Shown here piece by piece: positions 43,540 through 46,857 of a stretch of DNA of 64,000 nt; position 1 is the first letter of the stretch; every line of letters begins with the position of its first letter. Source of the stretch: Nitrospirota bacterium (GTDB lineage Bacteria > Nitrospirota > UBA9217); contig DASPSR010000030.1 in assembly GCA_035623825.1 (NCBI GenBank), forward strand, positions 1 to 64,000, given 5' to 3'. The notes beneath the pieces were generated by a model. It ran no database searches. It was not told the DNA's origin and saw only the letters and a program-made list of their open reading frames with translations. A program made the position numbers and the translations under genes.

Positions 43540-45318
43540 TCAACATATCTCCGGATCCTCTCCCTTGCCGCCCGGCATCAGGTCGCATTCATTGAAGACG
43601 CGGAGGATGCACACCCGGCACCGTTCCGGATCGAGCCGCGGAACGAGTTTGCGGATGGCTGCAGTTTTCGAACCCAGGATGTTCTCCTCTCCGATTCGCT
43701 TGATATATCCGCCGCGATGCAGCGTCTCTATCACCGCTCCCTTGAGCGAGCACAAATAGAGCTTCCTGCCTTCCAAGTGAAGCCTGTGCGCCTCGTTCGC
43801 GAGTGTCTCCGCTCCAGCAACGTCGATGAAGTTGATTCCTCCGCCCACGATAAGGATATGTGCCTGCTCCGGGCTTGTCTGAGTCGCCGCGTTCAATTCC
43901 TCAGCGAAATGGTTGACGGCGCCGAAGAATAGGGACCCGTCCACTCGCAGGATTTTGAGCTGTGGACACTCGGGCAGGTCCTTTCTCTCGACATTAATGA
44001 ACCGCTGATGATACCCTTCGTGCTCAGGAACAAGCGTGACGAACCTCGGATGGGAGGTGCGATTGAGGTACAGGAGCAGGGACAACATGACACCCACGTA
44101 GATAGCGAACTCCAGTTCCACGAGCAATGTCGCCAGGAATGTGACCGCCATTACTGCCGCTTCCTGGTTACTGGTCATGATGATGGTGCGGATGTGATGG
44201 AAATCGATCAGGTTCCAGGCCACCAGCAGGAGGATGCCTGCCATGGCCGGCATGGGAAGGTACGCCGTGAGCGGCGCAATCAGGAGCAGAACCAGGGCGA
44301 GCGCCACAGCGGCGATCACGGCGGCCATCGGCGTCTGCGCCCCCGCGTCGTAGTTTACACCCGTGCGGGTAAAGGACCCTGACGATGCATAGCTCGAGAA
44401 GAAGCTGCCGACCATGTTCGCCAGCCCTTGGCCGATGAATTCCTGGTTGCTGTCAATGCGTTGGTGGGACCGAGTGGCCACGGCGCGGGCGATGGAGACA
44501 GCCTCAGCAAGGCCGAGCATGGCCACAGCCAACGCACTAGGAGCAAGGGTCCGAATGTTCTGCGTTGAAAGGTCGGGCACCGAGAGCGGCGGCAGGTGCG
44601 CGGGCAGCGAGCCCACAAGCCGCACGCCGCGGGCCTCACCATGCAGCGCTATGCACGCAAGGCTGCCAATCACCATGGCGATCATCATTCCTGGCAACTT
44701 CGGCACATAGATTTTGAGCAAGAGTGCTGCGGCAAGGGTGACAAGGCCGATGGCGACCACGAAGGGGTTGATGTCGGAAACATGGTGTAGCAGGTCCGTC
44801 CAGACATGAATGAACGCATGCCGTTTCGATCCTGGCACACCAAGCAGGTTGTTCATCTGACTCGTACCGATCAGGATCGCCGCGCCAGCGGTGAAGGCGA
44901 CTACGACCGAGTGTGAAACGAAGTTGATCAGGGCGCCAAGTCGAGCGATCCCGAGTGCCAGCTGGAACAGCCCCGCCAGGAACGTGATGGTCAGAATCAT
45001 CTCAAGATAGGTGACGGTCCCGGCCTGGGCAAGGGGGCTTACGGTCGAAAAGAGCACTATCGAGATGGCTGTGGTCGGTCCAGAGACGAGATGGTACGAG
45101 GACCCGAAGAGCGCGGCGAAGATCGCCGGCACGATGGCCGTGTAAAGGCCGTACTCCGGAGGCAAGCCCGCAATGATGGCAAAGGCAACACCCTGCGGCA
45201 GGACTATGACCGCGCCGGTCAGGCCCGCGAAGAGGTCCCCGCGAAGCGACCGACGGTTGACTTTCGGCCACCAGGCACGGAATGGCAACGCCGCGTTTAG
45301 AAGATCGGATTTGTCCAT
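43540..45318 (-). CDS. SulP family anion permease with STAS domain
   Basis: GDLFAGLTGAVIVLPQGVAFA..GLYTAI, SGPTTA, SSGSFTR, STAS (DGSLFFG, INFIDVAG), C-terminal CxxC..EC. Confidence 0.92.
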   Translation of the reverse strand: MDKSDLLNAALPFRAWWPKVNRRSLRGDLFAGLTGAVIVLPQGVAFAIIAGLPPEYGLYTAIVPAIFAALFGSSYHLVSGPTTAISIVLFSTVSPLAQAGTVTYLEMILTITFLAGLFQLALGIARLGALINFVSHSVVVAFTAGAAILIGTSQMNNLLGVPGSKRHAFIHVWTDLLHHVSDINPFVVAIGLVTLAAALLLKIYVPKLPGMMIAMVIGSLACIALHGEARGVRLVGSLPAHLPPLSVPDLSTQNIRTLAPSALAVAMLGLAEAVSIARAVATRSHQRIDSNQEFIGQGLANMVGSFFSSYASSGSFTRTGVNYDAGAQTPMAAVIAAVALALVLLLIAPLTAYLPMPAMAGILLLVAWNLIDFHHIRTIIMTSNQEAAVMAVTFLATLLVELEFAIYVGVMLSLLLYLNRTSHPRFVTLVPEHEGYHQRFINVERKDLPECPQLKILRVDGSLFFGAVNHFAEELNAATQTSPEQAHILIVGGGINFIDVAGAETLANEAHRLHLEGRKLYLCSLKGAVIETLHRGGYIKRIGEENILGSKTAAIRKLVPRLDPERCRVCILRVFNECDLMPGGKGEDPEIC

Positions 45319-45474
45319 AGCAGTCGGTCGGATCAGTAAAGCAGGCCTCGCGGAATATGTTCATATTGTACCATACAGGTGTGAAAAGTGCAGTTATGAG
45401 TGCGCAGATCAGCTCACATGCGGGGAATCGCTTTTTTGCAATCACAGCACTTCATACCGAATTGTTCTCCTCCC

Positions 45475-45769
45475 GGAGCGAACGAGGGAAATCGGCCTAC
45501 GCCTCGCGGTAGGAGCGAAAGCACGGATAGAGGCCCAGTTCCTGAGCGAGGCCGTCATCTTGAGCCTGTTCGGCAGCATTCTGGGGATCTTCGTAGGCGT
45601 GGCCAGCTCGTTCATCGTGGGGCACGCATTTGGATGGCCTATGTCCATTCCTCTTGAAGCGCTCACCGTCGCTCCGCTGTCCGCTGTCGGTCTCGGGGTT
45701 TTCTTCGGTTTCTATCCGGCGTGGAGGGCCGCACGGCTGGATCCTATTGTCGCCCTCCGTCATGAGTGA
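45475..45769 (+). pseudogene. 3' remnant of a MacB/FtsX-type ABC permease
   Basis: ERTREIGLRLAVGA..QFLSEA..GVFFGFYPAWRAARLDPIVALRHE*. No N-terminal part is present; upstream sequence is the SulP promoter region. Confidence 0.85.
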
Positions 45770-45927: not shown

Positions 45928-46335
45928 TTATTTGCTTATGTCCTCTTGATCTGCCGGCATCACCTTTTCAATGACCGTCCCGAAGACGGTCAGCGTCACC
46001 TTCGGCCGCTTGGGGTCATTACTCGTGACCTCGATTGTTTCGGTGATTACACCGGTTTGATTCAGCGTTGCAACCTTGGCGCTGATGGCACCCTCTTCTC
46101 CCTGCTTGAGATGGCTTGAACTAGCCATCACGGCCGCGCACCCTCAGGAGGTGGTAAGGCTGTTGACTACCAGTTCGTCGGTGCCCTTGTTTTTGAATAT
46201 AAAAGAATATTCCACCTCTTCGCCTCGCATGACTTGGCCAAAATCATGCTTTTCGGTCACGAATTCGATGGATGGCTGGCTCCAAGCGAGAGTTGGCTGA
46301 CATAGTACAAGAATGAGAAAGAAAATCTTATTCAT
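45928..46335 (-). CDS. DUF1573-like exported protein with in-frame TGA (candidate selenoprotein, S-U-G-C), 135 aa
   Basis: Two track ORFs lie in the same frame and are joined by TCC-TGA-GGG-TGC (TGA at 46146-46144). HDFG..F.FKNKG...L...TS[U]GC...I.VTSNDP..P...L fits DUF1573, whose usual motif is SCGC. Confidence 0.8.
46110..46129 (-). promoter_or_regulatory. Candidate bacterial SECIS hairpin
   Basis: mRNA GAUGGCU-AGUUCA-AGCCAUC: perfect 7-bp stem, GU at loop positions 2-3, 21 nt between the UGA and the loop. Confidence 0.65.
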
Positions 46336-46422: not shown

Positions 46423-46857
46423 ATGATGAGAAGAGCGATAATACCGTTGGTTGCCGCATTTTTAATCATCTCTGGAAACGGTTATGCAGCCGCTGCAGGC
46501 AAGACTCCCGATCAATTAGTGAAAGAGGCCAAGGCGTCTATCAAAGAGTTTACGGTCAACGATGTCAAGAGCATGATTGACGGAAAAGAGAAGATCATCC
46601 TCCTTGATGTCAGGGACAAAAACGAGTTCGAAGAAGGGAGCATCCCCCGTGCAATAAACATCTCTCGTGGAATGCTCGAATTCAAGGTGGCCCTGGTCAT
46701 CCCCGATAAGAATGCCAAAATCATCGTATTTTGCGGTCTCGACCTCAGAGGGCCTCTGGCAACGAGATCCCTGAATGAAATGGGCTATATGAATGCCGCG
46801 AACATGATCGGCGGCCTCAGGGCATGGAAAGAGGCGGGCTATGCCATCGCGAAATAG
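46423..46857 (+). CDS. Exported single-domain rhodanese (sulfurtransferase)
   Basis: Signal peptide, LLDVR...EF..G.IP.A, active-site loop CGLDLR, GGLRAWKEAG. Confidence 0.9.
   Translation: MMRRAIIPLVAAFLIISGNGYAAAAGKTPDQLVKEAKASIKEFTVNDVKSMIDGKEKIILLDVRDKNEFEEGSIPRAINISRGMLEFKVALVIPDKNAKIIVFCGLDLRGPLATRSLNEMGYMNAANMIGGLRAWKEAGYAIAK

Follow-up and report, generated by a model that had tools for sequence, protein, structure and literature searches.

A Nitrospirota member of the DUF1573/UGC family with a probable selenocysteine codon, a covarying SECIS-type hairpin and a divergently transcribed rhodanese neighbour

Selenoproteins of the DUF1573 type were first reported as OS_HP2, a new family from an Olavius symbiont metagenome (Zhang & Gladyshev 2007, PMC1976440). 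The GOS study of 2008 listed them as 'pfam07610, UxC' with 354 Cys homologues (PMC2398784), and reviews list a 'PF07610, UGC' selenoprotein family (PMC9312934, PMC13188914). According to these accounts, the members share the PF07610 domain, a U-G-C or UxC motif, a UGA aligned to Cys, a downstream SECIS element and an unassigned function, and the original OS_HP2 members were found in deltaproteobacterial worm symbionts and ocean samples (PMC1976440, PMC2398784). A full-text literature search for 'DUF1573' retrieved no assigned function. The gene analysed here, which a preliminary description had presented as a hidden candidate selenoprotein, is a further member of this catalogued family, so that its novelty does not hold: DUF1573/UGC (OS_HP2) selenoproteins have been in the literature since 2007. 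Unlike the original OS_HP2 members, the gene and 24 aligned relatives belong to Nitrospirota, although Nitrospirota DUF1573 selenoproteins may already be included in the supplementary tables of selenoproteome papers.

The window, meaning the whole 64,000-nucleotide stretch of DNA that was analysed, carries the gene copy located on contig C41 of the source genome (G000). The features of the locus were as follows.

46335..45928, minus strand: DUF1573(U) gene, probably encoding a selenoprotein; ATG at 46335-46333, TGA at codon 64, TAA at 45930-45928, 135 aa
46279..46335, minus strand: predicted signal peptide MNKIFFLILVLCQPTLAWS, residues 1-19, with probable cleavage after A-W-S
45973..46269, minus strand: DUF1573 domain, a PapD-like/ASH Ig-type beta-sandwich, residues 23-121
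46146-46144, minus strand: UGA codon 64, probably read as Sec, the first residue of U-G-C in the context T-S-U-G-C-A-A
46140-46138, minus strand: TGC codon of Cys66 in the U-G-C motif
46110..46129, minus strand: hairpin of the bacterial SECIS type, 7-bp stem and 6-nt loop AGUUCA, 14 nt 3' of the UGA
46423..46857, plus strand: exported single-domain rhodanese, 144 aa (Pfam Rhodanese, E 8.3e-18; active-site loop C-G-L-D-L-R-G)
43540-45318, minus strand: flanking gene for a SulP-family anion transporter, 592 aa
47007-47756, plus strand: flanking gene for an exported isochorismatase-family hydrolase, 249 aa

Translation table 11 divides the locus into two ORFs that share a frame: 46335..46144 (63 aa), which stops at the TGA, and 46131..45928 (67 aa), which begins at an internal GTG. 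The preliminary description had noted that the two were separated only by the TGA, which is exact; its coordinates were right and the strand is the minus strand. A plus-strand reading of the locus was rejected since its translation gave no sensible protein. When TGA was translated as U, 46335..45928 became a single frame of 135 codons (MNKIFFLILVLCQPTLAWS/QPSIEF...LTTS-U-GC-AAVMASSSHL...ISK), giving the 135-aa product with a U-G-C motif that had been proposed. The concern that reads might show TGC or TGT at this codon was also addressed: in four additional metagenome runs from peat (X4-X7), Logan contigs covered the TGA with 0 differences, which rules out a sequencing error. Three of the four runs (X4, X5 and X6) also contained short contigs belonging to other organisms; these matched only 46096-46157, ~50-60 nt spanning the UGA, the G-C codons and the hairpin, with 4-5 differences, showing strong conservation of the nucleotide sequence in this recoding core. 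A promoter and terminator scan upstream of the DUF1573(U) gene found nothing convincing.

In public gene calls, the gene was cut into 'hypothetical protein' pieces of 63 aa and 66-68 aa, as had been foreseen for standard annotation, and 27 half-length fragments of 59-71 aa were found, called 'hypothetical protein' where named. This separate listing of the halves, together with the two ORFs under table 11, would fit a TGA that is a true stop, in which case the locus would be a pseudogene or two unrelated small ORFs and the hairpin a by-product of the peptide or of chance. Against such a reading, the Pfam domain spans the TGA: the joined protein matched PF07610 (DUF1573) over the complete profile (positions 1-98 of 98) with an E value of 2.5e-21 and 76 bits against a cut-off of 26.1, and the match (residues 23-121) ran across the TGA. 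The joined protein also matched the Pfam HYDIN/VesB Ig-like model. Its top NCBIfam model was NF041425, 'OS_HP2 family (seleno)protein' (OS_HP2_seleno), with 79.4 bits, and the three genomic copies scored 73.1-76.3 bits, all below the curated cut-off of 100; the gene is thus filed under the broader DUF1573/UGC family rather than under NF041425.

A hydrophobic N-terminus similar to that of the predicted signal peptide was found in 30 of 30 homologues, and export of the DUF1573(U) protein is suggested by this segment. A lipoprotein reading of the Cys in L-V-L-C-Q was rejected, because by the general lipobox rule a Leu at position -1 makes no lipobox. The AlphaFold2 model, built with 30 homologues, showed one compact domain of eight strands with a mean pLDDT of 90.3, which also speaks against two unrelated ORFs or a pseudogene. 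Residues 4-11 formed a helix ahead of the domain, and U-G-C lay in the turn that links strand 55-62 to strand 67-71. The top Foldseek matches of the model were the HYDIN PapD-like domain 2e6j and the Porphyromonas gingivalis protein 2qsv; 2qsv and the HYDIN PapD-like domains (2e6j, 2ys4) have the PapD-like/ASH Ig fold in common with it (Foldseek E 3.3e-07 and 1.7e-07). The uncharacterised two-domain protein 2qsv was also the sole solved sequence relative (profile match, E 6.5e-05). Where the motif of the DUF1573(U) protein aligns, 2qsv carries neither C-G-C nor U-G-C, and hence no solved structure displays this motif. Assignment as a thioredoxin-fold oxidoreductase was rejected on account of the all-beta PapD-like sandwich of the model and of the motif, which is UxC rather than CxxC or UxxC. 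Pfam and NCBIfam matches to families of the bacilliredoxin type were weak (E 0.004 and 0.001) and far below the cut-offs.

To place the UGA codon among homologues, related loci were compared at the aligned position. A homologue was present in 32 of 41 related genomes. The preliminary description had called for both TGA- and Cys-containing orthologues at this codon, and both do align there: the best 30 loci of relatives comprised 23 with TGA and seven with TGC or TGT in the U column. The 23 TGA loci included every match in the window's own family (f1) plus one in G027. A scan of public species genomes with an alignment of closer sequences gave 49 loci, of which 15 had TGA, 33 had Cys and one was partial. 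All 15 TGA loci were labelled Nitrospirota or Nitrospirae and came partly from the same genomes as the set of relatives, and the 33 Cys loci were from Binatia, 'Deltaproteobacteria', Ignavibacteria, Bacteroidota and others. The residue aligned with the UGA in these other lineages was always Cys, never Trp or Gly. The S-C-G-C motif expected of DUF1573 proteins was seen in the Cys forms as [ST][SAP]-C-G-C. The gene thus has the pattern given in the literature for the family, with an in-frame UGA first in U-x-C (T-S-U-G-C) and aligned with Cys in homologues. Searches with the single protein as query yielded no related locus in public genome contigs and only two near-identical copies in metagenome contigs.

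The source genome itself contains two paralogues, C19:389-673 (minus strand) and C13:283286-283564 (plus strand). In both, the only TGA falls at this U-G-C, and the hairpins, with loops AGUUCG and AGUUCU, follow it at the distance seen in the window copy. C19 is a contig of 4.2 kb, on which the DUF1573(U) copy adjoins a TnpB/Cas12f-like TNB-domain ORF (L020:1683-2171) and, for this reason, may belong to a mobile element or border on one. A tree built by maximum likelihood from 57 domain sequences, from which L079-L093 (largely duplicates of genomes already represented), L100, L104, L108, L110, L111, L113, L114, L119 and L127 were omitted, placed the 25 Sec forms beyond a single weakly supported branch (83/43), adjoining the Nitrospirota Cys forms. 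The Sec forms fell into two subclades with good support, one of the window's type (G000, G003, G017 and G027; support 96/85) and a common subclade of 21 rows (support 100/98). The window's small subclade as a whole comprises G000, G003, G017, G152 and G027.

As to the downstream structure, bacterial SECIS elements of the E. coli fdhF type are SelB-binding hairpins that lie within the coding sequence immediately 3' of the UGA and have their apical loop ~20 nt from it, with a G-U early in that loop; such are the general properties against which the hairpin was compared. It consists of GAUGGCU (46129-46123), AGUUCA (46122-46117) and AGCCAUC (46116-46110), and was found as originally described, with a perfect 7-bp stem, a spacing of 21 nt from the UGA to the loop, and GU at loop positions 2-3. 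It resembles the fdhF type in lying within the coding region 3' of the UGA, with the loop ~20 nt away and an early G-U, and differs in its short perfect 7-bp stem, in the absence of a visible bulged U and in a lineage-specific loop consensus, AGUUCN.

Taken alone, a 7-bp hairpin departs only modestly from chance. Among 19,976 sampled random TGA triplets of the genome, 179 (0.9%, or 9.2% once G-U was allowed) were followed by a perfect Watson-Crick stem of at least 7 bp that started 8-24 nt after the triplet, a frequency that the reading as a true stop can invoke. The 61-nt local fold was no better than its shuffles (z -0.17), and an Rfam search at E values up to 10 returned only noise and no SECIS family. 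It is conservation with covariation across homologues that raises the hairpin above chance. In a gap-free alignment of the 48 nt from the UGA in 25 TGA forms, including the two paralogues of the same genome, helix columns 18-24 and 31-37 held standard pairs in 94.9% of 175 cells, and both-sided changes occurred in five of the seven pairs (28 cells). The covariation score of 0.512 was reached by none of 500 shuffles, and when the 3' arm was slid by 1-3 columns, pairing fell to at most 48% and the scores to 0.02-0.19. The loop was AGUUCN in nearly all 25 forms.

The hairpin was absent at the same position in the Cys forms, both in the loci of relatives and in the public loci. Substitutions in the stem also altered the peptide (V-I to M-A, N to S), and Cys forms that encode the same A-A-V-I-S-S peptide used other Ser codons and had no stem. 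These two observations indicate that selection acted on the structure as such, and did so only at loci with a UGA codon. Accordingly, the suggestion that other genomes should keep the TGA with a conserved hairpin was borne out in the 25 aligned TGA forms, and the SECIS-like element proposed 3' of the UGA was upheld by a conserved helix whose compensatory changes were confined to TGA forms. This is the expected signature of a bacterial SECIS element, and predicted recoding by SelB at the hairpin is well supported by the comparison.

Beyond the TGA, the codons were compared with those of the orthologues in G003 and G017, giving pN of 0.30-0.34, pS of 0.62-0.73 and dN/dS of 0.15-0.33, a ratio resembling that of the upstream half of the gene. 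Judged by these rates, the half 3' of the TGA is under purifying selection and translated. Such selection, the compensatory stem changes, and the occurrence of TGA at the same column in 25 sequences, with replacement elsewhere by Cys only, are at odds with a true stop, which we regard as barely credible.

The code of the genome is standard, since TGA terminates more long ORFs (207 of 474) than any other stop codon and is therefore not reassigned. A read-through scan for a coding-looking frame with a downstream stem produced 80 candidates, of which eight were chosen by motif. A Pfam domain extended across the TGA in six of the eight, the TIGR00476 match covered it in SelD, and the eighth had no family. 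The six genes, and the Sec-type selD, are listed below.

C22:12202-14871: FdhA, Pfam domain spanning the in-frame TGA
C40:92158-92766: peroxiredoxin, Pfam domain spanning the in-frame TGA
C27:129559-130455: DsbA-like protein 1, Pfam domain spanning the in-frame TGA
C48:55226-55813: DsbA-like protein 2, Pfam domain spanning the in-frame TGA
C24:11485-12003: rhodanese-like protein, Pfam domain spanning the in-frame TGA
C2:31450-31803: DsrE-like protein, Pfam domain spanning the in-frame TGA
C48:65513-66598: Sec-type selD, 375.7 bits, one TGA (GAG-U-ACK) covered by the TIGR00476 match

Seven other genes, including that of SelD, thus have an in-frame TGA where known selenoprotein families carry Sec, and at least 10 intact genes of the TGA-selenoprotein type are present in the genome, FdhA and the Sec-type SelD among them. 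The selenoproteome is probably larger, because the scan was motif-guided and eight of 80 candidates were checked.

The UGA could in principle be decoded otherwise, through a reassigned code (Trp or Gly), near-cognate read-through with Cys or Trp, or Cys insertion by way of the Sec pathway. A JGI call gives one orthologue (P0002, 52% identical) a W at the U codon, meaning that the gene caller read through the TGA, and the Sec machinery was not seen in the assembly. Such decoding conflicts, however, with the use of TGA as the commonest stop, with the lack of any suppressor or UCA-anticodon tRNA among 40 tRNAs, with an aligned residue that elsewhere is always Cys and never Trp or Gly, with the in-frame TGAs at catalytic Cys/Sec positions of known selenoprotein families, and with a SECIS-type element that would have no role in plain read-through. 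We consider it extremely unlikely; the option 'UGA read as Cys', kept as a less likely alternative in the preliminary description, found no support in a genome whose main stop codon is TGA.

Of the Sec machinery, the selD gene is present with its own Sec-UGA and is followed by a TusA-domain gene. The assembly, which is 89.65% complete and comprises 67 contigs, yielded no selA, selB or tRNA-Sec, a result that, strictly read, bears on the refuting condition named in the preliminary description. No match to selA was obtained, the best selB match had 101.3 bits against a cut-off of 242, and the best tRNA-Sec match had 41.6 bits against 47, those matches being Leu and Ser tRNAs. ARAGORN reported the 40 tRNAs with no SeC tRNA, BLAST with the tRNA-Sec genes of relatives gave matches of only 13-18 nt, and the region around selD on C48 contained no selA or selB. 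G003, the closest genome with an orthologue (86% complete), likewise had none of selA, selB, tRNA-Sec and selD.

These absences would agree with a true loss of the Sec machinery, leaving the TGA genes as recent relics and the locus with a 63-aa fragment as its only product. Several observations speak against a loss. The assembly also misses tRNA-Phe and tRNA-Ile(GAU). In relatives, selA adjoins selB, and three of four (G002, G019 and G001) have tRNA-Sec(UCA) at a distance of 2-6 kb, so that the three genes form one cluster of ~8 kb and a single missing contig would remove them all. At least 10 genes with a TGA have remained intact, free of any second lesion, and purifying selection after the TGA was evident between G000 and G003/G017. 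G001 (77% complete) keeps selAB and tRNA-Sec without selD, suggesting that incomplete MAGs drop Sec genes haphazardly. Furthermore, G002, at 99% the most complete genome of the same genus, contains selA, selB, tRNA-Sec(UCA) and a Sec-type selD. An assembly gap is therefore the likeliest explanation, and loss of the machinery is highly unlikely. A synteny search for the gap showed that the flanks of the selAB clusters of G002, G019 and G012 scatter over contigs of the source genome, including C40, C44, C48, C27 and C24; synteny around the cluster is not conserved and does not locate a gap. G012 also carries a second tRNA-Sec-like match (G012:C9:389439-389529, 52.9 bits, above the Rfam cut-off) besides the one near selAB.

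Taken together, the Sec/Cys alignment, the SECIS covariation, the selection on the downstream half and the Sec-type genes elsewhere in the genome support the original reading of a U-x-C selenoprotein, and the locus is very probably a genuine Sec-decoded gene of the DUF1573/UGC family, carried by an uncultured peat bacterium of the Nitrospirota. According to this proposal, UGA codon 64 would not be read as a stop in translation; the hairpin 14 nt downstream would act as a SECIS element and recruit SelB-GTP-Sec-tRNA(Sec), Sec would be inserted, and translation would continue to the TAA at 45928 to yield the 135-aa product. Selenium would thereby be incorporated at codon 64. The product, in which a signal peptide precedes one PapD-like domain of the Ig fold, would probably be released into the periplasm.

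The genomic neighbourhood bears on the possible function of this protein. The exported rhodanese is transcribed divergently from the DUF1573(U) gene. Among 151 genomes searched, six had a rhodanese orthologue, and the divergent pair was found in four of them (G000, G003, G017 and G152); the other two orthologues had no DUF1573 neighbour within 1.5 kb. This gene order points to the rhodanese as a possible functional partner of the DUF1573(U) protein. In public gene calls, the longest contigs given for the rhodanese and for the DUF1573 halves are equal in length (3215, 3152, 8745, 15872), a hint of co-location. The rhodanese orthologue of G009 (L136:1441-1980, minus strand; G009:C45) has a TGA at the position of the catalytic Cys (VVVY-U-MFDKRSP), which marks it as a Sec-type rhodanese; within 1.5 kb of it there was no DUF1573 gene, and the window-protein query found no close relative in G009.

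The other flanking genes were less constant. Both the SulP transporter and the isochorismatase-family hydrolase were missing at the loci of G003 and G017 with matching flanks. In an ORF of 198 aa at 45173-45769 (plus strand), the match to FtsX was confined to the last 93 residues, corresponding to the C-terminal permease domain, and the Arg/Pro-rich N-terminal half looks non-coding; judged by its sequence, the ORF may be what is left of a truncated permease gene of the MacB/FtsX type. In the common subclade (L021, L032-L051), a different gene order was conserved, namely a PP-loop ATPase (ATP_bind_3), a MshEN-domain protein of ~231 aa, DUF1573(U) and a class-V aminotransferase.

Cys-type DUF1573 proteins (S-C-G-C), including those of other Nitrospirota families, have the same domain, motif position and signal peptide, and differ in carrying Cys for Sec, in having no SECIS hairpin and in their domain architecture. 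Six of the seven Cys (C-G-C) forms in the phylum were fused to a C-terminal c-type cytochrome domain with two CxxCH motifs (L026, L027, L029, L030, L031 and L041, in G031, G039, G028, G025, G037 and G034), and those of G031, G039 and G037 adjoined DsbA-like thioredoxin genes.

On this basis, U-G-C in the strand turn could form a redox-active selenol/thiol pair capable of selenylsulfide formation, and its chemistry could involve a thiol, persulfide or chalcogen, possibly together with the divergent exported rhodanese. A redox or sulfur-transfer role is favoured by the replacement of one Cys of the conserved C-G-C by Sec, by the fusion of Cys forms to cytochrome c (six of seven) with three beside DsbA-like genes, and by the divergent pairing of the rhodanese in four of six genomes. 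The fold, which is not thioredoxin-like, the lack of CGC in 2qsv and the two of six rhodaneses with no DUF1573 neighbour count against it, and we advance the role tentatively, as possible although on balance unlikely. A more specific reading, which we regard as speculative and rather improbable, is that in a distinct Nitrospirota subclade that includes the window copy, DUF1573(U) and the exported rhodanese might constitute a two-gene periplasmic module, in which the persulfide or perselenide of the rhodanese would be passed to, or resolved by, the selenol/thiol pair, the Cys forms fused to cytochrome c being an electron-wired version. The Sec-type rhodanese of G009, with no DUF1573 neighbour and no close relative found, is consistent with a module of this kind. 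In the cited passages of published accounts of DUF1573 selenoproteins, the rhodanese pairing was not found.

For a selenoprotein specialist, the DUF1573/UGC findings hold nothing surprising. Nevertheless, since automatic gene calling splits the family, the selenoproteomes of peat and groundwater Nitrospirota are under-counted, and NCBIfam NF041425 would miss the Nitrospirota clade, whose 73-79 bits fall short of the cut-off of 100. The three paralogues per genome, the tightly conserved AGUUCN SECIS element, the rhodanese pairing and the cytochrome-c fusions provide leads to a periplasmic redox or sulfur-transfer role. If the two-gene module were true, these selenoproteins, 'hypothetical' since 2007, would receive a function for the first time.
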